Below the pieces are notes generated by a model. That model was not told the DNA's origin. It was given only the letters and a program-made list of their open reading frames with translations, and made no database searches. A stretch of 57,866 nt of DNA, filler included, from Sphacelaria rigidula (lineage: Eukaryota): assembly GCA_964200075.2 (NCBI GenBank). It is 8 parts of 8 records of this genome, joined end to end, with 100 filler letters (N's around TTAATTAATTAA, not from the genome) between each part and the next. Parts side by side here need not be neighbours in the genome. Positions count along the whole stretch, not along the records: positions 28,987 to 36,131 come from CAXNAA020016267.1; 7 more parts are not named here. One strand, 5' to 3'. Positions within the stretch are counted from its first letter, which is position 1; the number at the start of each line of letters is the position of its first letter. The position numbers were made by a program, and so were the translations under genes. Shown piece after piece: positions 6,455 to 55,424 of the stretch.

Positions 6455-6775
6455 CGTACCGCGCTGGTGAGGCACCCATGCAGTATATAAGCCGTGGCTG
6501 TCTCTGGAAGTGGCGATACCACACAATAAAGCAACTCATTGTATGCTGTCATCCGTACGCAAAATAATCAATAGGCTTCGGGCCCAACAATCTTGGCAGG
6601 ATGCAGCTCACCCTTTATTCGACTCGCCGAACACACTTCGTCGCTTCGCTTAGTGACTGATTGCGAGCCTGGTCCGGCGAGAATCTGGTGTCCTCCGTCC
6701 TGACTTTGTAGGGATGCGAGGTCAATGGTCGTTTTATGACTATGGCATGCATGATCACGAGTACACCCTACCTAC
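6455..6775. repeat. Partial copy of the abundant TIR family containing GGATGCGAGGTCAATGGTC
   Basis: Closely similar to 7260-7555; boundaries approximate. Confidence 0.65.
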
Positions 6776-7147
6776 CGCGGACTACCGCGCAAATTCGAGC
6801 GGATGGTTCCAAGCACACATACACAACCTTGAAATTCTCAAAGGCTGTTCGTGTGATGAACCGTCCAACAGGTGCTCCATCACTGTCAGTAACATGATGT
6901 ATGCCCAACCTAAACCACAGTCCGCCTCGGGTTTGTTGAACGGCAGTACTTGTGGGCGCCAAGGGAGCATTCAATGGTAGCTTCGCAACCATTTTCCGAG
7001 CCAACAGGCCCATGCTGAGTCGTCGTTGGTTTGTGCCGTATCCTCTGCTACATGCGTAGAGGCAGCATTCAAACGTGTGTATTCTTGCGTAGAGGCAGTG
7101 TCATGATTTTCACCTGCTTTGAGACATGGTTTTTGCGGTTTCTCAAT

Positions 7148-7247
7148 NNNNNNNNNNNNNNNNNNNNNNNNNNNNNNNNNNNNNNNNNNNNTTAATTAAT
7201 TAANNNNNNNNNNNNNNNNNNNNNNNNNNNNNNNNNNNNNNNNNNNN
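7148..7247. other. Artificial 100-bp contig spacer
   Basis: N-run, TTAATTAATTAA, N-run; exactly 100 bp. Confidence 0.97.
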
Positions 7248-7558
7248 CTCCCCGGCTTCGCACCCATGAGGCAGTGTATAAGCCGTTGCTGTCTCTGGAA
7301 GTGGCGATATCAGATAATAAAGCAACTCATCAGAGGCTGCCATCCAAATTCAAGATAATCAGTAGGCTTCGGGCCGAACAATCATGCAGCTTACCCTTCA
7401 TTCGACTCGCCAAACACACCACGGCGCTTCGCGCTTGGTGGTTTGAGTGCGAGCCTGGTCCGGCGAAAACCCGGCGTGCTCCGTCCCGGCTTTGTAGGGA
7501 TGCGAGGTCAATGGTCTTATGACTATGGCATGCATGATCATGAGTACACCCCCTCCCC
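7248..7558. repeat. Partial copy of the GGATGCGAGGTCAATGGTC family, abutting the truncated copia integrase
   Basis: Similar to 6455-6775, 36232-36310, 38140-38260 and 43290-43376. Confidence 0.65.
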
Positions 7559-9248
7559 GGCTTCGCGGCGGTCGGCCGTGGTGTGCAGGTGGTTTCGAGG
7601 GGTGCCAGAGAACAGTTGAGCGCAGAACCACGGATCTGGTGGTGAGGTCCCGCACCCGGTATGTCTGCGATGGGCGATCCATCGCAGTGCCCAGCAGGGT
7701 GCACTTGTTTCCGTGCGGGTTCAGCTTGTGTGGCGGATTGTCCCGGCGTAAGTAGCCGACGGTACCGAACGGAAGAATCCCGGTGGAGGAAAGTTTCTGG
7801 CCAAACCAGAGCTCGTAGGGCGTGAGTCTGCGGCCCAGTGGCGATGTGACGCTCTTGTTGTTCTTGTCGCAAGTGTATTGCATGGCTCCGGCCCAGAGGC
7901 GATCGGATTTCCCTTCCTTGAGGCTGCAAAGCAGAGCGGCAGTTTTATTGCGCAGTAGTCCGAGAGCTCGCTCGGCGGCCCCGTTGTGCTGTGGAGTGTG
8001 AGGTGGCGTACCCACGCACATGATCCCCAGCTTGTTGAGGAGGTCTTGAAACTTTCCCTTTAAGTCACCTCCACCATCAGTACGGATGATGCCGACCTTG
8101 ATGCCAGCAAGGGTGATGTGCGTGGCGAGGATGTCTTCAAGTGCCGCAATGGTGCCGTCCTGCTTCTTCAGAAACCGTATGATCTTTAAACGGTTGTAGT
8201 CGTCGACACACAGCATTGCGTAGCGACTACCGCAAAAAGATGTGTCCGCAAAGGGTTCGGCGAGGTCGATGACGAATCGCCCAGCGCGCGTATCAGCGCA
8301 CGTGTCTCTGATCGTCGGCACAGCAAAGCGTCGAACTCGTGATTCGGAGCATGGGGTACATGGTCGCCACTCGCCTGTCAGCTGCATGCCGGCCATCTTC
8401 GCAGTCTCGCGCGTGATCTCCTCGCTGGGATGTCCGAGTATCTCGTGGAGAACCGTGATGTCTTGGGTGTCCGGCTTCGAACCGGGCTTCCTGCCATGCA
8501 TCGCTTGGTCGTTTGGCGTTGGCGTGTTGTTGCGTTCCGGCGTGGCAGGGCGGCGTCGAGTCTTGATCTCGTGAAGCTCGCTCTCGTGGTGGAGCCTTCG
8601 AAACGTGATTGACCTTGGTCCCTGCAGTGCTTTGATGGTGCTGACTGCAAAGTACATTTCGAGGGGGCGCGTGAAGTGACTTGGACTGTTTGGCACCGAA
8701 AGCAGGTTATTGTTTTCCAGTTGAGGCACATGCGCCACGCGCTGTAGCTTGAGGTCCTCCGTGGTTCCAGTGAAATTGCCAGTGTCGTGGTCAACTTCGA
8801 GGTGTAGCCGGCCGTATCCGGCGATGGGAAAGCATTTTTCGTCGGCGGTCTCCACGCGGTCGTCCGTTGAGGTCGTGTGGTTGTCGCGTAGATTAGCGGC
8901 GCTTGACGTCATGTGCTCCGTTGCTCCGCTATCGGCTACCCAGAACTCGCCGTCTCGATTCTTCTTGGCGATGAGTCCGCCAGTTGTGGAAGCCTTGGCC
9001 AGCAGCCCGTCGCCGAGGGCGCCTGTCGAGTCCGCAGTCGCCATCATGCCTTGCTGACAAACTTTCGCGCTTGCATTCTTGGGGCGATTCGGACAGTCGC
9101 AAGTCCTGAGTGGCCCTTCGCAGTAAAACCATCCCGAGTTGGGTGTCTTGAGGTCTTCAGCGTTGTTCCGTCTTGTGGTACTGCCCTCCCAGCGGTTGCA
9201 GCTTCGTCCTCGGCCTCGGGTTCGGATGACCGCTGAAATTTGCGGCAA
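7559..9248 (-). pseudogene. Copia pol fragment: aspartic protease, GAG-pre-integrase, integrase core, SH3
   Basis: Part of ORF 7398..9248 carrying the motifs above; the reading frame runs out into an unrelated repeat near 7558. Confidence 0.88.
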
Positions 9249-14394: not shown

Positions 14395-14494
14395 NNNNNN
14401 NNNNNNNNNNNNNNNNNNNNNNNNNNNNNNNNNNNNNNTTAATTAATTAANNNNNNNNNNNNNNNNNNNNNNNNNNNNNNNNNNNNNNNNNNNN
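14395..14494. other. Artificial 100-bp contig spacer
   Basis: N-run, TTAATTAATTAA, N-run. Confidence 0.97.
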
Positions 14495-15762
14495 CTGGGT
14501 AGGATATCGACGTGTAGCTGTAAGCACACGCAAGTGATGGAGGTACACAAAAGCACACGTGGAATAAAGAAATGACTCACGTAAAAAAGCGAATGATCAA
14601 AGCCACTCTCAATCGTATCATGTACTACTCTCAATCTCACGAAAACACCGTTTATCGCTGGAAAAGTGGAGAAAGTACTGTTTTGAGCTCGAACCTCATT
14701 TATTTCATTGATGAACCTCATTTCATAATCCTCTGTTGTTAGAAGCTGAAAAACAATCGACCCACAGGGGTATAACTAGACCGATTCTACTGGAAGCAAT
14801 TCAAATTTTCTGTTCAAAACTGCCTTTTCGGCCCTTCCTCTTTCTCTCTTATTTTTCGCCAAACACGGATTTTCATTGAAAAACGGTCAAGCGATAAAAA
14901 ACAGTGGGCATCCTTTCTCAGCTGCGACCGTTTTTCACCGAAATTCCGTGTTTGACCCAATGTGGCCAAAAAAAGCAGAAGTGCAGCCAGGGGGAAATAC
15001 AAAGTTGCCCTAGAACGGTCTCAACAAGTAGAGCAAGTTATTCCAAGGCGTCAACATCCGCCTAGCGCTCTTTTCGAGCGTCACTCAACGGAGAACGACC
15101 CAAAAGGCAGTTTTCGACGGGGATTTTGAACGGCTAGCTCCCAGTAGAGTTGGCCTTATGCCGCAAAATGTCCAAACTGTTACTTTTTTTTCGGGCCTGA
15201 TATTATCCTACAAAAAGCCCTGTGAAGGGTCAACCTGTCAACGTGCATGTTGTTGCTGTGGCATGAGAGGTTTCGAAGTCACGCGCCCATGCTCTTCTTA
15301 TCATGTCTGGACGCAAGAGTAAATTGCTTCACCCGACACACAGTACCCGATGATTCTCTAACTAGATACTTCCTTATTGTCGTTTAGAAATATGGCCTCA
15401 ACCTTCAGACTGCTGAATCGGCATCAAGATTCACTTGAAAAAATTATGTTTGTTCCAGATGGACTACCCGCACCGCGCTCTAGGCAATACTTAGACTGTG
15501 TGTGCGGGTAGTTCATCTGGACCATGCGTACATTTTTCAAGTAAATATTGATGCCGATTCAGTAGGTGACCTACGCTCGCGGTCAAAGGGTTACTGTAAC
15601 TTGTTTTACATTTTCTCAGCGTCTAGCCGGTGAGAAACACGCAAAACAAATCCATCCGCCCCCACGCTCACCGTCACTCACCTCCTCTCACACACCAAAA
15701 TCGAACTTGCAGTCCTCTCGTCAAACCCTGAAGAGACCTGTGACAAAGTAGATAAAAGAAGA

Positions 15763-17541: not shown

Positions 17542-18706
17542 TTAACCCTTCATCATTCGACCGCAAGGGTAGTCTTATCTGGACAATGCATACATTGTTT
17601 CACTTGAAATTGATGCCGATTCAACAGAAGACTGACCTCGCCGTCTATTAACCCTTGGACCGCGACGGTAGTCCATCTGGATCATGCACTCTACTTGCAA
17701 GTGAACTCGATGCCAGTTCAATAGATGACCTGGTCTCGCTGTCAAAGGGTTAACCCCTAGACGGCGAGAGTAGGTCATCTATTGAATTGGCATCAAGTTC
17801 ACTTTGAAAAATCATGCATGATCCAGATGGACTATACCCTCGTCGTCTAAGGGTCAAACCGCGAGGGTAGTCCGTCTGGACCACGCATACCTTCTCCAAG
17901 TGAAGTTGATGCCGATTCAACAGATGACCTACTCGTCGTCTCAGGGTTAACCCTTAGACCGCGAGATGAGCCTTGCTGGACCATGCACACTTTTTTCACT
18001 TGAAACTGATACCGATTCAACAGAAGACTAAACTCGCGGTCTAAGGGTTAGGGTTAACCCTAGGACCGCGAGATTAGTCTTTCTGCACCATGCATACTCC
18101 TTTCACTTGAAATTGATACCGATTCAACAGAAGACTAACCTCGCGGTCTAAGAGTTAACAAATAACCCTCAGACCGCGAGATTAGTCTTTCTGGATCATG
18201 CATATTTTGTTTCACTTAAAACTGATGCCGTTTCAACAGAAGACTAACATCGCGGTCTAAGAGTTAACCCTTAGCCGTTAGACAGAGAGAGTAGGTCATC
18301 TGTTGAGTCGGCATCAGTTTCACTTGGAAAAAAAGTGGTATGCATGATCCAGATAGACTAACCTCGCGGTCTAAGGGTGAAACCGCGATGCGGGTAGTCG
18401 ATCTGGATCACGCATTCCCCCTTTTTTTCCCAGGTGAAACCGATGCCGATTCAGCAGATGACCTACAGCAGGTGACCTACCCTCGCGGTCAATGGGTCAA
18501 CCCTTAGATACCGCGAGAGTAGCTCATCTGGATCATGGATTCTTTCGTCAAGTGAAATTACCGCCGACTCAACAAATAACCCACCCTTGTCTTAGGGGTT
18601 GATCCTTGAACCGCGAAGCGGGTAGTCCATCTGGATCACAAAACAGTTTTCAAGTGAAAATGTTGCCGATTCAGCAGGTGACCTACCCTCGCGGTCAAAG
18701 GGTTAA
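17542..18706. mobile_element. Stack of ~11 piggyBac-type MITEs (~100 bp each) joined at TTAA-like sites, mixed orientation
   Basis: Units read TTAA-CCCTTAGACCGCGAG...CTCGCGGTCTAAGGG-TTAA. Junctions near 17650, 17752, 17857, 17949, 18056, 18157, 18266, 18380, 18499 and 18601. Copies 3 and 8 are inverted. Confidence 0.85.
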
Positions 18707-21640: not shown

Positions 21641-21740
21641 NNNNNNNNNNNNNNNNNNNNNNNNNNNNNNNNNNNNNNNNNNNNTTAATTAATTAANNNN
21701 NNNNNNNNNNNNNNNNNNNNNNNNNNNNNNNNNNNNNNNN
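21641..21740. other. Artificial 100-bp contig spacer
   Basis: N-run, TTAATTAATTAA, N-run. Confidence 0.97.
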
Positions 21741-23520
21741 GGGGAAAGCACTGTTTTAGGCTTGAACCTCATCTCGGAGTTAAACCTCAATTCGCACAAT
21801 TTGTTGTTAGAGGCTGTATAAATCCTCCCTTGCCCATCAGTTCATCCTGAAATTGGGCAAAGAAAGAACGCATTTACGAGCAGCCTCTGCTGTTCAAGTC
21901 TCACATACACGAATGTATGTCCACACGGCCGCGCTACACAGCTTTGGCTGGTGCGTGAACGGTGTAGCGTGGGGAAATACCTCGCTCTTCTATAGATACA
22001 GGTTCTTCTGAAAAGCTGGTAGTCCATGGTCTACAAATATAATGAAAACCGCAAAAAAAAATTTCATGTATAGGACCTCAAACGAAAACTCCCGACGTAT
22101 CTTGTTTCTCGCAAAAGCTCGCGTGTCGTGACGACGGTCAGAAAGATCCGTACACAACAGTGTTTTCGTGAGACTGAGAGTAGATGATACGATTGATAAT
22201 GAAAAGCGGTCAATCAGTGAATGAATCGTTTCAGTTCCGAAATGCACTTCCACGAGGCCCAACATGCTTTCTGCAATAGCTGGCCACTGAGGCCCTTGAT
22301 ATCCCTGGGTAGGATATCGACGTGTAGCACACGCAAGTGATGGAGGTAAAAAAAAGCACACGTGGAATAAAAAAATGACTCACTCAAAGCGAATGATTAA
22401 AGTCACTCTCAATCGTATCATCCACTCTCAATCTCACGAAAACATTTTGACACGACAGTGTACCGCACTTGTAACGCCTACCACAGACGGAGCAGGAAAA
22501 GACGGGCTCACGCTCGGGTCGCACACTGCCGCGGCACGCATCCCTGTGCTGTAAAAACATAGTAGGATGTATATCGTGAAAAAGAAGGCTTCCATGTGGT
22601 CTAGACAGCATGTCATCCTTGAATGCTCGCGATAGTTGAAGTTCTCGTTTTGCGGTCGTGAGACCTGCACGTCAGTGGAGCGATGGTATCTGGCGACTAC
22701 ATCGACATGTGGTTGACACACACATACGTATTTCATGACCTCCTGAAAACCTACTGTGCACAGTATACCGCTGAATATGTCTAAGACGCTCTTGTTTACT
22801 ACAGGTCGTTGGTGCGCTCCTCAGACCGTAAGGTAAAATCATCTTGTCAGCCTATTGTTGTCGTTGACAGCCATCTCAAGAGGTAATTCAAAATTCTCGA
22901 CGCATTCTTTCCCGCAAAACCTCGCGCCAAGCCGTGACAATCAGAGAGATTCGTCCACGATAATGTACCGCGGCTGTGCAATCGATATAATTGTAATGTA
23001 ATAATAGAGGTGCCTCATACTCGACGTTCCCCGTACATTCGACAGTAACGTGAATACAGTAAGACACCGGGCGGCGGAGATCATTCAACAGTAATATACT
23101 GTAAACTCCACGGGGATCGGTCTTGCAGCGAGCGACATGAATTACCACTGATGTCGTCGAATGTACTTGAAACCTCGACTTTGAGATACCGCTGTCGCGC
23201 AGCCAAAGCACCGCACTACTGCACTACCACTGTTCTTTCTGTACTCCACCGACTGGATTACGCTGCACATTATCAAATCGGCATGCCACTCTCAGCCTCT
23301 TCCAGGCGCAATCGACGACAATGTTTAAGCGTGCGAAACTGGCTCACGTGCCGACTGTACACCGGCGCTGTTGGGCGACGTTCTGTTTAAGAAGATCGCG
23401 TTGTCGTTCTGAACGCTTGGGCGGTCACGAACGCTCGCTAGAGGTTGTAGGACCACCGCGACAACACACGCCCGTTAACCACGGGCGCGCGCGATTCTCA
23501 CTTGATTTTCGAACGGGTCG

Positions 23521-24604
23521 TGTTGCAGGTTAAGGGCAACGCCCGGTTAAGGGCAACTTTTCGCTCAAGGGTAAGCGATCCGGAATAAGGGCAAGCGCCC
23601 CTGACTATGAGGAAGCGCCCCTGACTATGGGGAAGCGCATCTGGGTAAGGGGAAGCGCTCCTGACTATGGGGAAGCGCACCTGGGTAAGGGGAAGCACAA
23701 CTGGGTAGGAGGAAGCGCACCTGGGTAGGGGGGAGCGCACCTGGATACGGGTAAGCGCCTCTGATTATTGGCATCTGCCCCTAGCGACGGAGAAGCGATA
23801 CACATATCGTCAACATATTCCCGAATCAGCCGAAGAATGCCAAACTGTCCAGGGCGTGCTAAGGACCCACGATACGTGTGTCTCTGGCTCGTGGGCACAC
23901 GATACAGGTGTCTCTCGCTTGTGGGCACGTGATACAGGTTAGGGTTTGGGTTAGGGTTAGGGTTAGGGTATCGTGGGTCCCTAGTGTAATGCGTGAGAGG
24001 ACCCCGTGCTTAGAGGATCGCGCCGTAGTTCAAAACACCGCAGGATCGACGTTTTTCAAAACCAATCCGGCCAGCCCCTGCAGGGACTACGCCCCTGACC
24101 ACAACCCCGACACTAACCCTAACCCTAACCCTAATCCTAACCATGGGGATATTCAAATTCCGATGCGGTCCTCTAAGCACGCGATCCTCTCACGCATTAC
24201 ACTTAGCACGCCCTAGACAGTTTGACATTCTTTGGCTGATTCGGGAATATGATGGCGATACGTGTATCGCTTATCCGTCGCTAGGGGCAGATGCCAATAT
24301 TCAGGGGCGCTTGCCCGTATCCAGATGCGCTTTCCCCTACCCAGGTGAGCTTCCCCTTCCCCGGGTGCGCTTCCCCCTACCCAGGTGCGCTTCCCCTTCC
24401 CCGGGTGCGCTTCCCCTTACCCAGGTGCGCTTCCCCATAGACAGGGGCGCTTGCCCATAGTCAGGGGCGCTTGCCCTTAATCCGGGCCGTTCTCCCCTAA
24501 CCAGGGGCGCTTCCCCATAGTCAGGGGCGCTCGTCCTTAATCCGAACCGCTTGCCCTTAAGCGAAAATTTGCCCTTAACCGGGCGTTGCCCAAAACCTGC
24601 AACA
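23521..24604. mobile_element. Foldback DNA transposon with ~350-bp modular TIRs and TGT...ACA termini (Ginger-like)
   Basis: TGTTGCAGGTT...AACCTGCAACA. Arms contain tandem 20-bp subrepeats (GGGGAAGCGCACCTGGGTAA and its complement). Flanks are GGTCG / GGTCC. The centre has TTAGGG repeats and a nested MITE. Confidence 0.8.
23985..24201. mobile_element. ~210-bp MITE carrying (TAACCC)n, copy 1, nested in the foldback element
   Basis: TIR TGTAATGCGTGAGAGGA...TCCTCTCACGCATTACA; flanks CCTAG / CTTAG. Confidence 0.85.
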
Positions 24605-25652
24605 GGTCCTGGAAGACGGGGCGATCCGCCACGGTCGGCCGGGCGGGCGATTTCTGCCCCGGCGGTCGCCCCGACGGTCGGGAATGTAGGCGCGACCCGC
24701 GCGGAGCTCCCCCGCCCGGGGGGCGCCTATATTCTCGAGCGCGGGCGCGAGGAGGCGTTGGCGGAATGCGGCGCTTTCGCGAGCCGCCAAATATTTTACA
24801 TGCTTCTATATCAACCTTTCCCACTTTGTTCGGTCATGGCCTAGCGAGATCCCACACAAAGCTTCAAGGCACAAGAGCCAACCTGGGCCGGTGAACGGCC
24901 TGGAAATATTGTTCCGAATTTCCTCCGGTCCGGTTCCCAAATCGCCGCTTTTCACCTAAATTTTGCGAGGTAAACGTCGAAATTTGGTAGGGAGGAAAAA
25001 TACGGCATGCTAAAACGCTCTCAAGCGGGACGCAAAGTAACTTTTTTTTCGTGAGTTAGCGGTGTTTTTCTGATATCTAAATACTGATTATTGCCCATAA
25101 CTCGAGAAAAAAAAAAACTTTGCGTCCCTAGCGACAGCGTTTTAGGATGCCCTTTTCTTCCCATCTACCAAATTTCGAAGTCTAACTCGCAAAATTGAGG
25201 TGAGATGGGGTTTGCAAGCCACAAATTCGCGTCTTGGCCGGCCCAGCCTGTACTTGACATAACCTTTGCCCAGATACAAGCGGACCGCTAGTATATTGGG
25301 TCGTTAGAAGTATCTATGAGCCAATTTTATCAAGAAATCGAACACCCCCCCCTCTAATCATAGAATAGCTCAGAAAACAGAGAACACATGACCTGTGATT
25401 CCATTTGCGCAGAGGGTGTGGTGCTGCTGTGCCCATCAAGCGAACAGTGGGGGACACCTGATCAAACCCGAGCTGCACTGCGTCAACAATGACCTGGGTC
25501 TGACTGAGCGAGGTATCAAGCCTCTTCTGATGATACCCTACATACATCTTACGACTCACGAAACATGACCAAGAAGGGCCGATCTTGAGAGTCCGCGAGT
25601 GTCAGCTGGTATCCGTGTGTTGGGGCGTCCCGAGATGATATCAAGACATCAC

Positions 25653-25863
25653 TGTAGTGCGTGGAGGGACCGCGTGCTTGGAGGACCGCGTCGTAGTTCA
25701 AAGCACCCCAGGACCGACGCATTTCAAAACCATTCGGGTCAGTCCCTACAACGACCACGCCCCTGACCCTGACCCCAACGCTAACCCTAACCTCAACCTT
25801 GACCATGGGGGTATTTAAACTCCACCAAGGTCCCCTTCGCACGCGGTCCTCCCACGCATTACA
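25653..25863. mobile_element. Telomere-motif MITE, copy 2
   Basis: Same TIR; exact 4-bp TSD TCAC. Confidence 0.8.
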
Positions 25864-25892
25864 TCACTATAGCCACTGAGCCGCTGAACCAC

Positions 25893-26090
25893 TGAAATGC
25901 GTGAGAGGATCGGGTGCAGAGAGGACCGCATCGGAATTTATTATCTCTATGGTTACGGTTGGGGTTGGGGTTATGGTCAGCGGCGTGGTCCCGCCGAGGA
26001 CTGGCCCAATTGGTTTTGGAAAACGTCGATCCTGAGGGGTTTCGAACTACACCGTGGTCCCATGAGCACGCGGTCCTCTCACGCATTTCA
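25893..26090. mobile_element. Telomere-motif MITE, copy 3 (opposite orientation)
   Basis: TGAAATGCGTGAGAGGA...TCCTCTCACGCATTTCA; flanks CCAC / CCGC. Confidence 0.8.
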
Positions 26091-26542
26091 CCGCTCACTC
26101 AGTGCTGGCTGACTGGCTTCGTGGTATTGAGACGTGTGAACAGATGAAATGCCATCAAAACGTTGAACGAAGTGCGTACAGTATGAATCGGGCTGTGATC
26201 ACACGCGTTGTCGTTTGTGACCGCTGTTGACCTGCCGAGGCCTCTGGGACGTCCGCTTTGTTAACCGGTTCATGCTGTTCGCATCCTCTCCAGATTGTCG
26301 ACAACTAAGAGGCGCTCCACAACATGCGGATGACGTCTACCAGCGACCACCCGTATTGACCTTGGGCACAAATGAAACAAATGCCTGTGCGATTCCTGCG
26401 TTGTCTCACGGGATTTCCGTCTGGCCTCAAACAATGGGGCCACGAATATATTCCGCTGTGCACGGTGGGTACAAGTCCATGAACCATACGCGCTGAGCTA
26501 GGGAAAGTGGAGACGTGAAAGCTCCTCACCTCGTCGTGCTGT

Positions 26543-26753
26543 TGTAATGCGTGAGAGGACCGCGTGCTTAGAGGACCGCATCGGAATTTGAACATCCCTA
26601 TGGTTAGGGCTAGGGTTAGGGTTAGGGCTGGGGTTATGGTCAGGGGTGTGGTACCTGCAGGAAATGGACCGAATCGTTTTGGAAAACCTTGTTCCTGAGG
26701 TGATTTGAACTACGGCGCCGTCCTCTAAGCACGCGGTCCTCTCACGCATTACA
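26543..26753. mobile_element. Telomere-motif MITE, copy 4
   Basis: Same TIR; internal GGTTAGGGCTAGGGTTAGGGTTAGGG. Confidence 0.85.
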
Positions 26754-27334
26754 ATACGTTCATAAGAAAGTGCAATCCATACCTCTGCTCTAGTGTGATG
26801 AATACAAAACATGTGAGAGGTACTTGTGGGCCTCTTTAGGCACTTTTTACGATAGCCCCTCCCAAAAAAATGTCTGGTTTTGGGATGCAAAATCTTCACG
26901 TAAATCGTAATGGGAAACGTCGAGCACAACGAGTAGCTCGGAATTCCCACGCTTGGATTCGGTCTCGCCAATGTCGCCCATATGAGGCGCTGTATGACCA
27001 TTTGTTTCGTGACACTTTTGGGCTGGTTTTGGGGGGGGGCTATCGTAGATGGTGTCTCAAGGGAACCCGTTTTCTATGACATGACCTACACGTCTCGCGT
27101 CATATACGGGTTTCACCCTAGGGCGATAGTATTGCAAAGAGAGGTGCCTAGCACAGGGTAAATTCGATCAACCTGGAATAACGATGCCCCAGGTTTTCTT
27201 AAGACAGTGGAGTCCTCGATACTGCAGAATATTTGAAATTCTCGGTACTTGTGATACCTGCGGTGCATTGAAACGCCCAATACCTAATTCCTAAAAGAGT
27301 TTCGAGAGTCTGCACCCTGGTGTGAGGACGATGC

Positions 27335-27544
27335 TGTAATTAATGTCTGAGAGGACCGTGTGCTCAAAGGACCGCATCGGAATTTCAACACCCCTATATG
27401 ATTAGGATTAGGTTTAGTGCTGGGGTTGGGGTCAGGGGCGTGGTTTCTGCAGGGACTGGCCCGATTGGTATGAAAAGCGTCGAGCCTGAGGTGTTTTCGA
27501 CTTTGATGCGGTCCTCTGAGCACGCGGTCATCTCACGCATTACA
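27335..27544. mobile_element. Telomere-motif MITE, copy 5
   Basis: Same TIR with a degenerate TTAGGG-like tract. Confidence 0.75.
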
Positions 27545-27663
27545 GGTAGATGCACGCACACGCCACACCAAACGTTCTGAGTTCGTTTCGGCTTTTATCG
27601 CTCTGCCACCCGACCTGAGCACGTCCCGGGAAACACATGCGTCCCGCACCTCGGGTCTATTAG

Positions 27664-27900
27664 GTATGGTGCCGTCCATAGCCACCTGAAGCAACGGAAT
27701 GGAGGGCGTGGAATCATCCGGCACGTGTTGCGTGAGTGATTGCGGGACTTGCGGCGGTGAGGGTTGCGGTACACGGGCCGAAGAGGTGGGCCTCACGAAG
27801 TACGACTGCTGCGTCGGAGAGATTGAGGAAGCAGGGGCTTACTGTGAAGACTCCGGAGAAGCACCATGCATACTCAGTGGCAGTGGGAGCAGTGACAGCG
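27664..27900 (+). pseudogene. Symmetric (phase 1-1) exon encoding a brown-algal-type Cys-rich module, with an in-frame TGA
   Basis: TAG acceptor at 27661-27663 and GTAAG donor at 27901. Translates as T*SNGMEGVESSGTCCVSDCGTCGGEGCGTR...DCCVGEIEEAGAYCEDSGEAPCIL, with TGA at 27687-27689. Confidence 0.65.
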
Positions 27901-28779
27901 GTAAGCGTTGGGTGTTGTTTGTACCGGATGTTCTGCATTAAACAGAAATGACATTTTTTACGATACCCACCCCACATACATGAAGTGGCTAGTTTGAGGA
28001 GTAAAAGTCTACGCATGGAGTCGAAATGAAACATCCGGGCAGAACCAGCAGCTGGGAATCCGAACGCTTGGATTCGTTTTTGCCTGCCACCCATCTGAGG
28101 CGCGTCATGCACACCCTGAAGTCAAGTATAAGGCGCTGCATGACCATTTTCTTCGTGACAGTTTTGGGCTGGTTTACAGTGCCGGCCCGCACTCAAGAAT
28201 ATGGCAGTTAAGAATTTGCCCCTGAGTGCACGTGCTCCGATTGAACGTGCTGTTAAGAACAAGAACACACACTTGAGGTGTACCACTGATGCTACAGATA
28301 AGAAGAAGAGTAACGTGGCGGCTACGAGATAAGAACATTCGCATGTGGAGGGGGCGAGGGATGGGCGATCCCAGTATTGGATTCGGGAGGGGGCTGGTTG
28401 TGTTGAGTGGGCACATCGGCCGGCGTATTTCTACCCCCACGGGCAGATTCCCTGAACGTACCCCCAAACTAGAACCAGTTCCGGAGCACGTTTGAGCAGA
28501 CCCACCGGTCCGATTACCACATGATTGAAAGCACCCCCAGACAAGGGACCCACACACGGTTCATGCACGGCACATAGTACGATACGCATACGAACAGCAC
28601 CATGGCCCACACACACGGATAGCATCATAGCCCTCACACACATGTAGAGACGAACCGCCATCAGCTAGTGGCAAAATAGCAGCAGCCGTTCACATCATCA
28701 TCAGATGTTGCGCTGGTGCCGTCGTCATATGATACGCAAACCAATAATATATAGAACACAGTCGGATAATTAAGACCCC

Positions 28780-28850
28780 GGTCGCCCCGGTGGCTCAGTT
28801 GGTAACCTCGTAACCTTCTGATGGTTGACCAGGGGGGTGCAATTGCCGGA
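28780..28850 (+). repeat. Possible tRNA-derived SINE head
   Basis: A-box-like GGTGGCTCAGTTGG; only a degenerate B-box and no cloverleaf. Confidence 0.35.
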
Positions 28851-28886
28851 GCGATGTGGAGTCTTGTCTCACCTCATGCCTCCCAG

Positions 28887-28986
28887 NNNNNNNNNNNNNN
28901 NNNNNNNNNNNNNNNNNNNNNNNNNNNNNNTTAATTAATTAANNNNNNNNNNNNNNNNNNNNNNNNNNNNNNNNNNNNNNNNNNNN
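28887..28986. other. Artificial 100-bp contig spacer
   Basis: N-run, TTAATTAATTAA, N-run. Confidence 0.97.
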
Positions 28987-29262
28987 GATTCTCATTTCAA
29001 AATACCTTCTCATATTTCTGGCAACCCTGTTATATATATATATATATATATATCTGTGTGTATACTGGTCAGAAAACATGGTGACAGAAGATACGACCCG
29101 GTATATATGCCTCCTGATACCTATCTGGCCACCGGTGCGGGGCTGCCCATCCCCTTTCCAACATGTAATATAAATATCTTGGCTAACCATCACGACGACA
29201 GAAAACGCGGGTCGATATGCGCCTTTTGGTACGCCTGTCGTCACCGGGGCTGTGTTGCTTAT

Positions 29263-30203
29263 ACCCTGGACAATATAATATGTTCCAATATGATACCAAT
29301 ATTTCGTATTGGAGCCAGCGCAAATATTGTCCTTTCAATACATATTATGTTGAGATGTCCTCGGAGATATCGAAGCAACAACATATATTGCTCGTGTCAT
29401 CATCATGAAGTAATGTATGTCAATATATATGGGACATGCAGTTGCTCCGAGAATAAAACATTCAATATATATATTGTGCATGCTGGCCGTGTGTGTATTG
29501 AAGTGTCAATATATATTGAGTCGAGGCGACGCGTAGCATATTGTTACCATAATATATATTGAACGCAAACCATGCAGAAGTATTGTTTTTCCAATATATA
29601 TTGCGCACGTTGATCGGATAGCTATTGTGCAGGCAATATATATTGAACACGCTTGTTGAGGAATACATTGAGCATTTTCGGCATGTAAAATACGTCTTTG
29701 AATGGCGCCCGCGAACAAAGAACTGCCCACTATACTAACTCCAATACACTTTCCAATCTATATGTTGAAAATCAATATATTTTGCTACACCAACATGTAT
29801 TGTGACCGTCGGTTCCCTCATGTATTGTCCGCCCAATATATATTGGACGCATTGACGCACGACATATAAGGGCGGCAATATATATTGGCGCTTCGGATGT
29901 CGAGTATATTGAATCGTCAATATACATCGACCTCGGGTGGTAACCAATGTATTACTCGACAAATATATATTGGTGCCTTCTCGCACCAACATATTACTCG
30001 GCCCATATATATTGAGGTGGCGCGTGTCGTGATATATTGTTCGGTCGATATATATTGCATGTCCCGAGCCTTGACGCATTGATGGCACAATATATGTTGA
30101 CCCTCTCTCGTGTCATCATATTGCTCGCCCAATATATATTGACCACCCGACGCCTCGATATATTGAGCGGGCAATATATATTATATATTGTATTGTCCAG
30201 GGT
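29263..30203. repeat. TIR-bounded, regularly interspaced palindromic repeat array (42-43-bp period, unique spacers)
   Basis: CAATATATATTG-like palindromes start at 29336, 29379, 29421, 29463, 29507, 29550, 29592, 29634, then 29791, 29834, 29876, 29918, 29961, 30003, 30046, 30088, 30130 and 30172. Ends are an 18/19 inverted repeat ACCCTGGACAATAYAATAT. Confidence 0.9.
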
Positions 30204-31493
30204 GTGGAATATTTACCCACCGCGACATCAAGTCACCTCACGCGTTACCTTCACCCGAAATATGACAAATCGTGTACCAGTACTGGCCTAATACACCTTT
30301 GCACCCCTCCAATCGCTGTGCCAACGCCTTCGACACAGACGTCACGCATGCCTCCGGGTTGAAAATGTACGCTAGATTTCGGCGATCCGTGAAAATGTGC
30401 ACGCCATTCCACAATAGATGCTCGAGACGACGAAAAGTGCTCACGATCGCAAACCCTTTCTTGTCAATGGTTGCCCAACGCACCTGTGAACCCTTGAAAT
30501 TGCCACTAAGAAAAGCCAGCGGTTCATGCGTCATGTCTTCAACCAGCAACCGTTGTTGCATTTCTGCATCAGGCATCTGCGTTACAAAACTATCCCAATG
30601 ATAGTCGGATACATCCGAAAACATCAGCACCTGGCAACCGGGGCGGGGATGCAACAGCGTCACGGTATGAGCCACCAGATCCCTCGCTTCCGCCCATGCC
30701 TGCAGCCTGTCCTCCGTCCACGACGCGGGCGGATTACCGCGGTTTTTGGCCACCGGCTTCGTGCGCCTTGCAGCCCCCATCATGAGTTCTTCTAGGGGAA
30801 CGCACAAGGGCGCCACTACTTCGGCCATACGTGGCAACGAGGTACGCAACCAGTTCATTGCGTGTAGGAACTGCATTAGTTCTGCTGCTGTTTCTGGACG
30901 CCGCATGTCAGACGAACCTTGCAAGCGGACCGGGTCATGCGAGGCGCGGCCGTGTGAACATACGTTCCCACACCACACTAATTCACTAGCAAAAAAGGTA
31001 CACTTGTGGGCAGCTGGAAACAGACCAACACTCTCTAAGCGAGCCAAGATTGCATCAGTATCCAACAGTTCGTCTTCCGTATCCGCGAAGAAAAATACAT
31101 CATCCACCCAAATCTTGCATTTCAAGCCATCTCTAAGGTCTACCATGACACCTTAAAAATAGGAAGTAGCACTCAACACGCCTTGCGGTACTCGTTGCGG
31201 GTAAACATGCCAAATGGAGTCGTGATGGTGAATATCTCTTGCGCCTCTTCGGCCAAGGGCATCTGCCAGTGCCCCTGTAGGAGGTCCAACTTACCGAAGC
31301 ATCGCGCGCTCAACAGGTCTATCATATCGGATTCCTGATTGGGCATGACACCCGGCGACTTCTCCACCTGACAATTGACGGCTCCGTAATCGCTGACAAG
31401 ACGGAAATCCTTTTTCGGCACCGCCATCGCTGGACGGGACCACACCGCCTGTAGATTCCTGAACACCAGCCCAACCGCCACAAGAGTTCCCAT
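30204..31493 (-). pseudogene. Gypsy reverse transcriptase and RNase H (frameshifted)
   Basis: ORFs 31173..31493 and 30238..31146; TGA interrupts the NAWGDL-like motif at 30238. Confidence 0.88.
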
Positions 31494-31499
31494 GCAAAG

Positions 31500-33558
31500 C
31501 AGCTAACCAACTGGACTTTACCGGATCATACCTCCTCGGTTTTGCCTTCACCACGGCCGCCCCTGGCTTCAGTGTAACCCTCGTGGCTTCCACGCGCGCA
31601 GGGAGATCACCCATCAGCGCACGACGAAACGCGTTAACGTGGCGATACAATATGCCACGCAAGCGCTCCGCTTTTGAGACGTTGGGGCCATTTGCCACAG
31701 CATCCGTCACTATTTCCTCCAGCGCAGCCATTCGCGTGGATTCCTCTTCTGCCGGCTCCATAGTCATATCGGGGCCACGCTCCACTAAACGTTCCACCGC
31801 CTCATCACGCTCCTCGGACACCTGCCGCCCCGCGTCCAGGAGAGCATCAACCGACAAGCTCATCATTCTGCGACTGGCCAAAAAAGCAGGCTTCTCGACA
31901 ATCGAACCGGGCGACGGCATTTGCGGTTTTAGGGACTCTAACAGCCAATCATACGGATCGACTCCGAGTCCCCGACGCGTCGGTAGGCCCAACAGAACGA
32001 CACCATCCGTCCCAGGCATGATCGCAAACGATATCGGGGGTAATTTCGCTGGCCCCCAGGTAGTCCTGAACGCCAACTGCAGGGGAATCGTACGCTCCGT
32101 GTCATTTATACGTTGCCCCGATGCGGCGATGGCCTGCCGCGCCCCAAGCGAGAACGGAATTCGGATTTGCTCACCAGGGAGTAGACGCTCCAGAATCTCC
32201 ACAAACAGCACCGACACGCTCGTGAAATGGGCGCCTGAATCCAACACAGGGTTGACCAATATGTCTCCCCGCGCCCGTTGATTTGGGAGATATAACTCTG
32301 CAGGAATATATTTTTCTTGATCCTCGACCGGCACCTGCTCCGCCGACTGATTTGTCGTGATCCCCCCTTGGCGCCACGGCTGCGCGTGCGGCGGAGGCAT
32401 AGACGCCCCCGCTGGGATCACCGGCACCGCCGGCGGGTATGAAGCCCCGCCCGCAGAACCAAATTGCAGCGGTACTCCGACCGACGCAGCAGCAGATCCA
32501 AATTTCAGCTGAAATCCGACCGGCTCAGCAGCAGGCGTCTCCCCTTGCCCTGCTGCCGGCGGCGCCGGCACTGAGCCTGACACTACAGTGGTCGGTCCCA
32601 CCTGCACCGCCCGTTGCGGAGCAGCAGCCCCTGCGGCTGAGCCGGACCCAGATCCGGACCCCTGCTGACGCCGCTGCCCCTGCTGCTGCTGCTGCTGGGA
32701 ACTCGATTGTACATCTCGACCGCTGGAGGATCCGCCTCCGCCACAACCCCGATTACCTTTCCCTCCTTTGTGATTGCGAGGGCGCACGGCACTCGTCTGC
32801 CCAGACTCCCCCTCGGAAGGCGGTGGGCACTTGCGTGTGTAGTGGCCTACCTGGTAACACTGAAAGCAAATGATATTGGAGGCGGCACTGCCTGCAGGGT
32901 TTGATCCGCGCTTACGCGAGCTCGAAGACTGCGGCGACGAAGTGGATGACTTCCCGAATACTTCGATCTTCCGCCATGCCTGAGCCTCCGCCACCACGGT
33001 ATCCATTACTAAGTACGGACCTGACTTCCAATTGGTTTCGTGCTGTAATTGCACAAGCACGGCCTGTTTGAATTCCGTCGGTGCCAGAACCTCCACGATT
33101 GCTTTCGTGGTCACCGCAGCGAGCTCTGGACGGAATTTCCCATCGGACGAACGATAAGCCATCTCGACGTTGGGATTTTCCGAAAAATATGTCTCCAACT
33201 TTCCCATGATTGGCTCCAACCTCTCACGCATGGTCTTCCCCTTGTGGTTCATGGTGACAGCCTTCGCCACGGCCGCGGACGCCTGTGTTAGCTCTACCTC
33301 AGCGCCCGCCGCATGCCCTGCATGCTTCTTGATCGCTGCAGCCAATTGCAGCGGCGTTATTGTGTTCTTCTCATGGACTCTTCTCGCAGAAACGCGTTGG
33401 AGCAGGGTAAGCACGAGTTGCGCCATGGAAACGACCTGATGCCTTACCGCACCCCCCGCATTCGCATGCTCCACCCGCTTCTTGTATTCCACGTATTTCG
33501 TATAAAACGAACGAGAAGCACACTCAGAATACAATTTCCCGTAACTGGGAGGCGGCAA
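31500..33558 (-). pseudogene. Gypsy gag-protease region
   Basis: Part of ORF 31291..33558 with the CCHC knuckle and the LDSGA protease motif; frameshift near 31500. Confidence 0.85.
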
Positions 33559-33817
33559 GTCTTCCCCCAGAACAACTGGGGTTACGGTTGTCTCCGCTGG
33601 CTCTTCGGCTGGTACCTCTGAAGTCGACGTTTCCGAGCGGACCTAATCGAAGGCTTCTGAACCTTCTCGAACTCCACAGTTCACGCCCGCCTTCGTCGCC
33701 GCACCACACAGCCGTGGAGTCCTATAAACTCCCCCAGCTCCAGCAAGTCTCCAGTCTGGATCAATCACGGGCCAGCCGCCTTTGCAGCTACCTCAGCTTG
33801 AAACCTCCTCACGCGTC

Positions 33818-34183
33818 TGTGACGTAGTATGTCCGACGCTGTCCAGACTCCTCTCTACTGAAAACATTCCAGCAGTCACTAGCGATAGCATAACTAGCAC
33901 GGCTAGCACTATCACTAATATCGATATTGTGACGCCGGAAGGTTGCTAGTACTGCAGCGTCTGATGCTGTTGAGGGACTCCCCAGTTCCACTGGCCTCAG
34001 GTTTCAGTTGTTAGCCTTCACAACATCCTTTGTTATCCTGGAGTGTCACACAGGCACATGCTCCATAAACCACATCAGGGTATCATCCCTGTGTCCATGT
34101 CATCGTCCATATCATCACTACAGATCCCAAGTCATCATCCAATCATCTCTATATACTCAACGTGACGGCGTGATTTCATCACA
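33818..34183 (-). repeat. Probable 5' LTR of the gypsy element
   Basis: 366 bp bounded by the inverted termini TGTGA...TCACA, just upstream of gag. No second LTR is available for confirmation. Confidence 0.65.
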
Positions 34184-35424
34184 GATCTCAAAAATGAGGT
34201 TCAAGTGGCATACCTTTTTTGCAGGGATGACGCGAAACAGTTACACAAAGCGAAACCCTCTTTCCCTCCAAAACTCTGCATCACTGAATCAGTTATGGCT
34301 AGGTGCACCGAACGAACGCGGTGAACACGCGTTTCGATGACGGTATCATCAGAGAGAAAGAAGTAACGACAGAGAGGAAGCTCCTCGCCCGTGCCCTTTG
34401 TGTGTCCTCGCTAAGCGATTACCAGTCGCTCGAGAAAATTGCATCATGCATGTTACCAGCTCGTACATAATATATCATGTGCTGGTAGGTATGTTATTAT
34501 ATTGCTGCGCACAGCCCCCCAAAGAACATCGAGCTGCGGAGAGATTTCGTCTTTTCTTGCCTCTGGAGCTCACCAATGCGAAGATCGGTTTCTCTCTGCC
34601 TCTCGTTTTGGACAGGACGCGCCTCTGTGCGCTGAAACTCATGTCGATGAAAACAGGGCAATGCTCCCGTCACCGCTACTACTGTTCTCTGTCACACACA
34701 TGCCAGTAAGGACAGTGCGCTGCGGCAAAAATAACAAATCCAATTTGAACTTGGGGGGTGGTATTCATCGTTGATTTTGCCCGACATGACATATGTGACT
34801 ATCCAGGTGCCCGACCACAAGAGCCTGCCACAGGCCAGTTGGGGTGTGTGTGAGAGAGAGATCAAACACTTGTGGAGACCTTCTTGACATGCGGAGTGAA
34901 AAGAGATATCTATGGTGGTGACCTAACTGTTGCTAGCATTGTGCAGAGGGGTGCTTCAATGCTGCTATCTGGAGCTTTCGTTGCTCTACTCTACTGACTC
35001 CCGTCTGCAGAGCGTCTGCCGAGAGGTCACACACGGGAACACCATGTTATGTACCGAATTTCGGAACAGCTATAGAAACAAAATAGGTCGATTTTCGAAA
35101 CTACGTCCACATCATAGAAATGACTCTTGTTACCTGAGGAACTGTGGCTTCCCCGTCCCCCCGCCAGGTATGAAAGAACGACGACAGAGTTTTTGCGAGT
35201 GCATGTAACACCCATGGGGGAACACAGAATTTCTCCTCATGAAAATCCCCGTTTTCCTACTTGCGAACCGTTTTATGTCCGTTGCTTTCTAATATGAACG
35301 TTAAACTATCGATTTTTGTTCGGTTCTGTATTGATTAGCGGATGTCAATGCCAGCAAAGTTTAGTTATGCTATTCGACGTAATCTTCGAACGTTTGGCCG
35401 GACCCAAAGCGGCCACTTTCCCTC

Positions 35425-36131
35425 GAGGAAATGGCGATGGCAATATAGCGTGAAGAACATGCAGAGAAAGAGATTGCCAGCTAGAGTAGAGTTGATGAGG
35501 CTGTATGGAAGAAAAGTACGAAAGGGCAAGCTGGAATAAGGTGGGATAGAGAAGTCGAGAAAGTGTTGAAGGGGATAGAAGGAAACCAAGACAAAATAGT
35601 GTCCATAGGTAAAGACGCGGGGTACAAGGCAAAAGTAAGAGACATGATCGAAATAAGGAAAAAAAGAGCGCTCAGACGCAAGGTAGACGAGGAAGAACAT
35701 CTGGAGATATACGGGTGGTTGAGAGAAGGGATCGGGATGAGAGCATATTTGCATGGCCCGATGGACGATGCAAAAAATATGAAATTGCGATTTCGGATGG
35801 GGGACCTGAACCTGCCCGAAAGAAGAAAGAAATATACCAGTCGTCGAAAGGAGAGGAAAGTAGATGGACAGAACTGCCTCTGTGGCAAAGGAATAGAGAG
35901 CAGAAGTCATCTGGTGGCAGAATGTGAGCTATACAAGGAGGAACAGGACGTGCTAGAGGGGGAAATACGGGACGTGAACAAAGGTGGCATGGAATCATTT
36001 GATGCATTAGACAGTAGGGAGAAAATGATGGCTCTACTAGGAGATGGATGGTGGCTCTACTAGGAGATGGATGGTGACCAGGGACGGCGAAACAGGACGG
36101 GGATAAGATATGTAAGAGGTTCTTGTGTGAT
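35425..36131 (+). mobile_element. 5'-truncated non-LTR retrotransposon (LINE) remnant, region C-terminal to RT
   Basis: Purine-rich and frameshifted. Encodes KLRFRMGDLNL...CLCGKGIESRSHLVAEC (CCHC-type knuckle). A 23-bp tandem duplication at 36031-36076 breaks the frame. Confidence 0.75.
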
Positions 36132-36231
36132 NNNNNNNNNNNNNNNNNNNNNNNNNNNNNNNNNNNNNNNNNNNNTTAATTAATTAANNNNNNNNNNNNN
36201 NNNNNNNNNNNNNNNNNNNNNNNNNNNNNNN
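36132..36231. other. Artificial 100-bp contig spacer
   Basis: N-run, TTAATTAATTAA, N-run. Confidence 0.97.
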
Positions 36232-36545
36232 TAGGGATGCGAGGTCAATGGTCTCATGACTATGGCATGCATGATCATGAGTACACCCCCTCCCTATCGT
36301 AGGATGACTCTGAACGTGTATCACGACCGTAAGGCACGTGGTAAGGTGCAGAGCATATTCAAATATCCTTAGGAATCAAAGCAAGAATCAAAGCAAAACA
36401 AAATGCTTACTATCCGCAACTGTACATATCAGACCCCATGCACACTTGAATATTTCCGGCACCCTTCCGCTCCCCTCGCCCCCCCCCGCCACCGCCGCTA
36501 CCCCTCGTGTTTGCACATCGTTATTTCACGTCTACATACGAAAAG

Positions 36546-37745: not shown

Positions 37746-38363
37746 GTTCGAGGCACACAGTAGGATATTTGCGTCGTGAATTCCTTAGAATAAACAAGTT
37801 TACATGTAGTCTCTGGTATACACGTCTTGAAGGGGCCAACCTTGTTGTGAAGGGAGCTACAATAGTAAATGCTGGTCTCTGTCAACTCATTTTTCGAGGG
37901 GTTTCGTTTCGAAAGAAGTAAAAATTGGCGTTTTTTAGTCAGCCAAGCCGAAGATACGGCTTCAGTCATAGGTATGGGAGGTTTCTTTCGAAAAGGTGCC
38001 CTTCTGACCATGCTTGGCGTTCGCACTGACTGTCCCACCAGCTGTTGTAGTTCTCGAGAGAAGACATCATGTATCAGGACACGTATTTTCGACCTGGTGC
38101 TCAGAGGTGATGATAGTTCGTTCAACTCGTGGCCAATCCCCCCCCCCTCCCCCCGCTCCGGCGAAAACCCGGCATGCTTCGTCCCGGTTTTGTAGGGGTG
38201 CGAGATCAATGGTCATATGACTATGGCATGCGAGGTTCTGAGTACACCTCCCTCCCCTCACCCCTGGCCCCCATCGATGGTCACATGACTCCGGCATGCA
38301 AGATCATAAGTACAACCCCCCTCCTCCCGCGTCTCCACGAATGTACCCCGATATTCGTGCCAG

Positions 38364-42575: not shown

Positions 42576-43376
42576 GTGAGCATTGCTGTACAGAATCTGT
42601 AACGAAATAAACCCAGGCATTGTTGAGGTCACCTTTTGATTGTTTATTTCGCGAGGTAGTAGCACGCACACACCAGTTGAGAACGACAAGAGCTATCTGG
42701 CTACATGTATGAAGCAAAGAACCAGCGCCAACAATTATGGTTTAGTGAGGTCTGTGTTCATCGACGCATTTTGAGACTTCTGGGTTTTCGCGTCCATGTA
42801 TCTGTACATGTATATCTATGTATACATTCATATCATGAGTCCCTGTCCCCCTTCGGACAGGTTTAAAGACACGAGGGATCAGCCCCTCTCTCTTCCGGAA
42901 CCTATCCAACAACACCTTCTCGAGCAGTATTGTATTATGTCCATCAGTACTCTCGCTTATCATGTATTTGGACGAAGGATACCAATAAAATAACTACTTA
43001 CCGTCAGAATTTGACGATGAAATTTGCTGAGGGATTTCGCGTGAAAGCGCCTGGAAGGAGGCTCGCCAATCCATTTTGCCCCGAATTCGCTCGAATAAGA
43101 CTCTCATGAGGTTGTTTTGAGAGCTGTACTTCACCGCGTGTACAAAGTGTGCTGCAGTCACCCCAATTGTTCAGACCAGAAGTAGATATCAGCCGCTGGT
43201 ACTACGTACGACAGAGGAGGCACAAAAACCGAAACTTCAATACACAGCCAAGGGTCTGTCGAGAGAAAAGTTTCGGACACGGAGCCCCCCCCCCCCTCCT
43301 GTTGCGCTTGGTGATTGAGTGCGAGCCTGATCCGGCGAAAACCCGGCGTGCTCCGTCTCGGCTTTGTAGGGATGCG

Positions 43377-43476
43377 NNNNNNNNNNNNNNNNNNNNNNNN
43401 NNNNNNNNNNNNNNNNNNNNTTAATTAATTAANNNNNNNNNNNNNNNNNNNNNNNNNNNNNNNNNNNNNNNNNNNN
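43377..43476. other. Artificial 100-bp contig spacer
   Basis: N-run, TTAATTAATTAA, N-run. Confidence 0.97.
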
Positions 43477-50621: not shown

Positions 50622-50721
50622 NNNNNNNNNNNNNNNNNNNNNNNNNNNNNNNNNNNNNNNNNNNNTTAATTAATTAANNNNNNNNNNNNNNNNNNNNNNN
50701 NNNNNNNNNNNNNNNNNNNNN
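50622..50721. other. Artificial 100-bp contig spacer
   Basis: N-run, TTAATTAATTAA, N-run. Confidence 0.97.
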
Positions 50722-55232: not shown

Positions 55233-55424
55233 CAAACTCGGCTCCCGGTATCCTGGTTTATTCGCTGGCTCTGCGTGGTGTCCTATTTTTTCAAGTGAAA
55301 GTGATCGCGATTCATGGGAGGACCTGACCTGGCGGTCAAACGGTTTCATTATCTGATGAATCGGCATCACTTTCACTTGAAAAAATAGGACAAGACAAAC
55401 CAGGATGCCGGGAGCCGAGTTTGG
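55233..55424. mobile_element. Small TIR element enclosing fragments of the piggyBac-type MITE
   Basis: CAAACTCGGCTCCCGGTATCCTGGTTT / AAACCAGGATGCCGGGAGCCGAGTTTG; the interior has TTCAAGTGAAA and GAATCGGCATC motifs. Confidence 0.6.

Follow-up and report, generated by a model that had tools for sequence, protein, structure and literature searches.

The Sphacelaria rigidula DNA described here (57,866 nucleotides, referred to throughout as the window) contains an array of 18 short palindromes set at a nearly fixed interval. The explanation we favour, at about even confidence, is that this array is a subterminal region of phased putative binding sites, for a transposase or an accessory protein, on a high-copy DNA transposon with a CACAC-type end, as in CACTA elements. 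The array has a regular anatomy, lies in a repeat of high copy number, and stands just inside a boundary beyond which the flanks are unlike. The sequences between its palindromes (here called fillers) are the same across copies and organism labels, and within the array only the motif and its spacing are conserved.

The window is a composite. Linkers made of 44 N, a stop-rich central word of 12 nt (TTAATTAATTAA) and another 44 N recur about every 7245 b, which shows that the window consists of eight joined pieces of about 7145 b and is not contiguous, and that arguments from neighbourhood across the linker points are invalid. The array is carried by the piece at 28987-36131 (7145 b); the sequence to the left of 28987 is unrelated to it, and the true context of the array is 7.1 kb only. 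The joins are located as follows:

7148-7247, 14395-14494, 21641-21740, 28887-28986, 36132-36231, 43377-43476 and 50622-50721, no strand: linkers, each N44-word-N44
28887..28986, no strand: linker to the left of the array piece, joining two unrelated pieces of ~7.1 kb

The basic component of the array is the 12-bp palindrome CAATATATATTG, which is without a loop and is composed entirely of A/T except for its outermost C·G pair. Copies with no more than one mismatch number 15 in the window, all of them within 29379-30183 (0.14 occurrences expected; 0 of 100 shuffles reach 15), and 18 units are recognized once up to two mismatches and a 2-nt TA expansion at 29463-29476 are allowed. Six of these palindromes are exact, eight have one mismatch and four have two. 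Eight units start in 29336-29634 and ten in 29791-30172, and the 16 intervals within the blocks measure 42 bp (ten times), 43 bp (five times) or 44 bp (once), with a mean of 42.44 and a standard deviation of 0.61. Of the 18 units, 12 carry a half-site that departs from ATATTG at no more than one position, and 9 carry TATTG exactly; the gap from the end of the half-site to the next palindrome is exactly 6 nt in 14 of 16 units. The first-pass annotation, which was made from the sequence alone, had described some 18 palindromic repeats in blocks of eight and ten at a near-fixed period, with a half-site and about 6 nt ahead of each palindrome; both parts of that description were confirmed, the period being 42-44 bp. 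Each unit is thus laid out as the 12-bp palindrome, a filler of 18-19 nt, the ATATTG-like half-site and 6 nt, and the conserved module is ATATTG-N6-CAATATATATTG, 24 bp in length. Since the 6-nt gap between half-site and palindrome is kept, the variation in length between 42 and 43 bp sits in the filler. The parts of the array are:

29336..29645, plus strand: block 1, eight units of 42-44 bp (palindrome, filler, half-site, 6 nt)
29646..29790, plus strand: degenerate middle stretch between the blocks, with decayed motif-like words at 29754 and 29773
29791..30183, plus strand: block 2, ten units of 42-43 bp, from motif and interval counts

Satellites and minisatellites consist of whole units that are alike and lie head to tail, and this is not what the array contains. 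Tandem Repeats Finder, applied to 28000-31500, reported no 42-bp period, which implies that whole units are less than ~70% alike, and the fillers of 17 units compared in register (the terminal unit at 30172 being left out) are 0.276 identical versus 0.255 after shuffling (z 2.35; 20 of 1000 shuffles reach the observed value). The first-pass claim that the spacers are unique is weakened, though not overturned: they are near random to one another, but a faint residual similarity persists. Agreement at 8 or more of 10 positions is seen in nine filler pairs, where shuffles give 3.0 ± 1.8, and one 11-nt word is common to the fillers of units 29379 and 30088. The fillers are almost, not quite, unrelated, a pattern that very old copies of one unit would leave.

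This residual similarity is what decayed copies of a single unit should retain, and it counts in favour of regarding the array as an old minisatellite carried passively in a mobile element, its motif persisting by mutation bias or AT-rich slippage and not by selection. Arrays of this kind are carried by MITEs that contain tandem repeats, by Helitrons and by foldback-type elements. Composite MITEs with internal tandem repeats have been described (PMC3879986). We nonetheless judge passive carriage to be unlikely, on evidence from the other copies of the array.

Public contigs were aligned to 29000-30900; the run labels X1, X6, X10 and X11 are coded, so that distances between organisms cannot be read from them, and X6 is only guessed to be RNA, so that its cover of the array says nothing on transcription. 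In the best-holding run, X1 (organism A), 7452 contigs match this interval, 677 of them at 99% identity or above, 1625 at 95-99%, 3104 at 90-95% and 2046 below 90%. Counts of distinct X1 contigs range from 42 to 112 over the listed array sites (counter maximum 128), contig depth being distinct from copy number. Positions 29000-29063 are without contig cover, a (TA)n repeat being skipped there. The X10 and X11 runs, which carry two other organism labels, hold the array and its fillers in the same order at about 93-95% identity, as in these records:

X10 record 14, 29850-30206: 357 b, 21 differences, gap-free
X10 record 12, 29548-29848: 18 differences, gap-free
X10 record 10, 29197-29577: 21 differences, 2 gaps
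X11 record 19, 29697-30139: 443 b, 23 differences, gap-free
X11 record 17, 29068-29367: 21 differences

Because the motif accounts for under half of the positions in each unit, identity of 93-95% means that the same fillers, the same filler order and the same 145-b middle stretch are present; the middle stretch (29646..29790) is itself kept without gaps in X10 record 12 and X11 record 19. One repeat family thus spans at least 29064 to 30206 (at least 1.15 kb). The array stretch is a high-copy dispersed repeat, not a single locus, and the family appears to be among the abundant repeats under at least three organism labels. Within the window, the repeat scan paired the array with no other place among the 20 of 26 direct and 25 of 61 inverted families listed. 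The family extends to the left beyond the array:

28987..29335, plus strand: non-array left part of the repeat family, with contig depth comparable to that of the array from 29064

This left part includes the (TA)n repeat at 29031-29053, and contigs bearing three different organism labels run across 29068-29367, 29197-29577 and 29072-29381. The left end of the element is outside the piece, which is cut at 28987. Individual contigs jump over 42, 84 or 132 b of the array, a sign that unit number may vary from copy to copy; such variation is also what a passively carried minisatellite would display. The unit at 29463-29476 is a 14-bp palindrome by virtue of its extra TA. This TA is missing from contigs amounting to 41% of X1 depth (10843 of 26546) and from the X10 and X11 contigs, and so is not the common state of the family.

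The sharing of fillers also bears on a suggestion made in the first-pass annotation, namely that the array might be a cassette processed into short guide-like RNAs, its layout resembling CRISPR or TIGR arrays. Developed in full, this would make it a transcribed repeat-spacer cassette yielding guide RNAs of unit length, with spacers taken from invaders. We give this next to no credence. As in CRISPR arrays, repeats that are short and in part palindromic are set between fillers of constant length that do not resemble one another, but the likeness of layout is superficial. CRISPR and TIGR spacers vary between copies or strains, whereas the same fillers in the same order are found in thousands of contigs and under three organism labels (X1, X10 and X11). 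This is among the findings that the annotation had named as fatal to the guide or acquisition idea, which we regard as refuted by that criterion. CRISPR and TIGR arrays occupy one or few loci beside effector genes (cas, Nop-domain tas); here the repeat is dispersed in a eukaryotic genome (7452 contigs of one run), and the open reading frames scanned on the piece have only retroelement Pfam domains and include no cas-type gene, the latter as had already been noted. A palindrome that is loopless and nearly all A/T would in addition make a poor RNA hairpin. Single-strand folds of the array are more stable than those of shuffled sequence (z -5.5 and -3.9), which might be counted in favour of guide RNAs; these scores were rejected as evidence, because any palindrome-rich sequence yields them when dinucleotide shuffles destroy the palindromes. 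Rfam and tRNA scans of the window found nothing.

Searches of viral and metagenomic sequence gave no further arrays. Two palindromes at the unit spacing had 0 matches in IMG/VR. The module pattern was found in at least 120 stretches of metagenome contigs and in 36 of viral contigs, and of these at least 156 loci the 155 listed with one palindrome and the single locus with two overlapping palindromes include no array; these matches are chance occurrences in AT-rich DNA. A blastn search of 29000-33500 against a phage collection returned no match, and as this collection is without algal viruses the result has little bearing on phaeoviruses. The array should not be taken as a sign of adaptive immunity or of guide RNAs in a eukaryote. 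For annotation, the caution is that arrays of this type escape Tandem Repeats Finder and can mimic CRISPR-type repeat-spacer arrays.

The contigs also indicate which positions of the array have been retained by the family. Among the 40 of 482 variant rows listed, 19 array sites were examined at which the window's letter is contradicted by 93% or more of the X1 depth. Ten of them are palindrome or half-site positions that the majority letter restores, eight fall in fillers and one in the middle stretch, and at none does the majority letter degrade the motif. As majority letters restore motif positions, the family consensus has cleaner sites than the window copy, which is decaying. Judged from sequence comparison, the lineage kept the 24-bp module and its spacing in all units while the fillers drifted to randomness, and the whole array was amplified afterwards as one piece.

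Passive carriage of an old minisatellite does not account for the survival of motif and spacing alone. Under neutral decay the 12-mer and the half-site should have been lost at the same pace as the fillers, and unit length should have wandered, yet with fillers at chance level 14 of the 18 palindromes have at most one mismatch and the period has a standard deviation of 0.61 bp, and the family majority restores ten motif positions and degrades none. Slippage of (TA)n, for its part, would alter palindrome length, and this is seen in one unit only (29463-29476). The retention of motif and spacing among randomized fillers points to selection on binding sites and their phase.

The right-hand end of the family is sharp. 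It falls at 30206, 23 nt after the last palindrome:

30184..30206, plus strand: last 23 nt of the family, which on the minus strand read inward as CACACCCTGGACAATAC...

Read inward, the family begins CACAC. Beyond 30206, 52 X1 contigs continue into unlike sequence (agreement 0.39), as do 3 X10 and 2 X6 contigs. An array placed directly inside a terminus, with outer flanks that vary between copies, is the arrangement found in the subterminal regions of DNA transposons. A minority boundary was observed at 30213, where 27 X1 contigs (versus 52 at 30206) continue into unlike sequence. The 7 AT-rich nt at 30207-30213 resemble the element's own motif, and may stem from a preference for certain targets or from a subfamily whose end is longer.

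On the other side of this boundary the piece carries part of a retrotransposon:

30207..33642, minus strand: truncated Ty3/gypsy retrotransposon, from open reading frames, domain search and protein homology

This part comprises an open frame of 783 codons with no Pfam match, a reverse transcriptase (RT) fragment at 31176-31502 (minus strand) and a frame encoding the RT C-terminus and RNase H at 30241-31152 (minus strand). The last of these has 94 relatives, the best being 80% identical and from Scytosiphon promiscuus, with others from Sphacelaria rigidula itself, and several of the relatives extend into the integrase zinc-binding domain. In the window the similarity to these proteins breaks off at 30205, the element being cut at the point where integrase should come next. 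On these homologies a brown-algal Ty3/gypsy element ends exactly where the array-bearing sequence starts, and the array copy abuts, and probably interrupts, its pol gene. The integrase part of the gypsy homologues is absent elsewhere in the window, a result that is uninformative on nested insertion because the window is made of unrelated pieces. Among the open reading frames scanned (at least 70 aa in 27500-36500 and at least 150 aa in the whole window), the domains found were RT, RNase H and Copia only, and no transposase domain was among them. The longest frame of the array itself (29738-30112, minus strand) has no protein relative in a search made with proteins of 68-219 aa.

Adjacency to pol on the same piece raises the question of whether the array could be the long terminal repeat (LTR) or 3' UTR of a retrotransposon (a solo LTR, or a LARD- or TRIM-like element) with an amplified array of enhancers, promoters or TATA-like elements, its phased palindromes being bound by a host transcription factor. 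A dispersed high-copy repeat of at least 1.15 kb with a sharp end would be in keeping with this, conservation of the motif only also fits transcription-factor sites, and LTR elements with internal tandem repeats and others with non-canonical termini are on record in the annotation notes for Ectocarpus (PMC12477816). On the plus strand, however, the visible end closes with ...GTGTG, and the minus strand opens with CACAC..., so that the TG...CA rule of LTRs is satisfied in neither orientation, and the tRNA and Rfam scans of the window found no tRNA-like or primer-binding feature. The neighbouring gypsy, moreover, crosses 30206 elsewhere: gypsy contigs continue leftward past this point into their own well-agreeing sequence (9 X1 contigs at 0.88 and 3 X6 contigs at 0.97), and the protein homologues reach integrase. 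As the gypsy family continues past 30206 in other copies, the array is not part of that gypsy, and we consider an origin in an LTR or 3' UTR fairly improbable.

A second copy of the terminal sequence, in inverted orientation, lies to the left of the array:

29260..29282, plus strand: inverted copy of the terminal sequence, matching at 14 of 17 searched positions and at 19 of 23 by eye

It is the one extra match in the window, where 0.08 are expected, and is only marginally beyond chance. The inverted copy and the terminus bracket the array, the copy lying at its inner border; as contigs bridge 29260, the copy is internal and not itself a terminus. A stand-alone inverted-repeat element of 947 bp at 29260-30206 was considered and rejected, as contigs of three labels bridge 29260 and inspection of the sequence revealed no 2- or 3-bp duplication flanking the trial pair 29260/30206.

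Arrays of short motifs, often palindromic, just inside the terminus are a hallmark of CACTA transposons. Known subterminal repeats are mostly irregular in spacing, and among them a strict 42-43 bp maintained over 850 bp is unusual. A terminus that starts with CAC is, on its own, weak evidence of class. In the soybean CACTA element Tgmt*, the 732 bp next to the 3' TIR contain 24 subterminal repeats that form 12 palindromes, and such repeats in CACTA elements are bound by TNPA-type proteins and are cis-determinants of transposition (PMC2613891). The resemblance lies in the many copies of a short palindromic motif directly inside the terminus (in the array, 18 palindromes over 848 bp, the last of them 23 nt from the end), in the lack of conservation between motifs and in a terminus that starts CAC. 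The array differs in its strict 42-43 bp spacing with an extra phased half-site, in a motif that is unrelated and almost all A/T, and in a terminus that reads CACAC and not CACTA. Transposon cis-acting repeat regions are a well-known kind of sequence; strict phasing with conservation of the operator only is unusual among the subterminal regions described.

Elements of brown algae offer closer comparisons in taxonomic terms. The annotation notes of the Ectocarpus library (PMC12477816, supplement file 1) list curated EnSpm transposons with CACCC, CACAG or CACTG ends, with CACCG also among the EnSpm termini noted, and hAT-2 with CACAC-GTGTG ends; they remark on "complex palindromes in subtermini" for EnSpm-N1 and on "complex tandem repeats in termini" for KDZ-5 and KDZ-N1. 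EnSpm-N1_Ec32, hAT-2_Ec32, KDZ-5_Ec32 and KDZ-N1_Ec32 come from the same algal group as the array, and the comparison with them is one of annotation notes and not of consensus sequences. The 12-mer is absent from the four text supplements of the Ectocarpus paper and was not found in the searchable literature, and in the part of a brown-algal centromere preprint that is accessible (10.64898/2025.12.07.692804) nothing similar is described. The element is most likely a non-autonomous DNA transposon with a CACAC-type terminus, perhaps CACTA/EnSpm-like and less probably hAT- or KDZ-like.

From this organization we infer binding by a protein, that protein's identity, the DNA-transposon class and a role in transposition. 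Under the proposed subterminal function, each unit would be a composite operator of 24 bp, in which a half-site is followed after 6 nt by a 12-bp palindrome of two inverted half-sites, and a dimeric or oligomeric DNA-binding protein that the element encodes (a transposase or a TnpA-like accessory protein) would bind these operators. Given the helical repeat of DNA, 42-43 bp corresponds to about four turns, and all sites would be presented on one face of the DNA. The bound protein may then act cooperatively, condensing the end and bringing it together with the opposite one so that the terminus can be cut. The idea of a helically phased protein-binding array, also put forward in the first-pass annotation, fits the data in so far as only the 24-bp module and its spacing appear to have been kept and the family majority restores lost motif positions. 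Should this be correct, the array is a clear natural case of selection on a mobile element that has spared, in each of 18 units, just a 24-bp operator and its helical phase, with the rest randomized; the binding site and the spacing rule of a brown-algal transposase or accessory protein could then be read directly from it.

There is also a slim chance, suggested by analogy, that the array represents a new type of cis-element of a eukaryotic mobile element, in which 18 composite operators, aligned along a single side of the helix, seed a protein filament or a complex of the partition type. Such an assembly might serve to tether excised or extrachromosomal copies or to segregate them, or might establish a chromatin domain that resists silencing, and so do more than mark where a transposase cuts. 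The model is the sopC centromere of plasmid F, described as 43-bp direct repeats with one inverted-repeat site each, upon which a dimeric protein builds a large complex (PMC3177203). sopC shares with the array a direct-repeat period and one inverted-repeat site per unit, and the analogy is one of layout only; sopC is a bacterial plasmid partition site, whereas the array has no sign of a ParB-type protein. The units of sopC are near-identical throughout, in contrast to the array, in which only the binding module is kept.

Several other repeats were recorded in the window. A foldback-like structure occupies 23516-24609, with arms at 23569-23863 and 24202-24496 that are 295 nt long, 87% complementary and 338 nt apart, and that are built of 20-bp tandem repeats (9 and 12 copies). 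At 25650-27545 short inverted-repeat elements of one family recur every 230-800 bp or so, with inner telomere-like runs of the TTAGGG type (e.g., 26599-26651). An open reading frame of 549 aa at 7398-9047 (minus strand), with Pol beta-barrel and retroviral SH3-like domains, represents a Copia-type retrotransposon fragment, and related repeats of 60-100 nt are located at 6647-7558, 36232-36294, 38152-38323 and 43305-43376. Finally, a repeat family of ~100 bp (families D3, D5, D10 and D13 of the repeat scan) is present at 17598-18605, 1465-1561, 15533-15593 and 55286-55346, where it is both tandem and dispersed, in both orientations and on several of the pieces.
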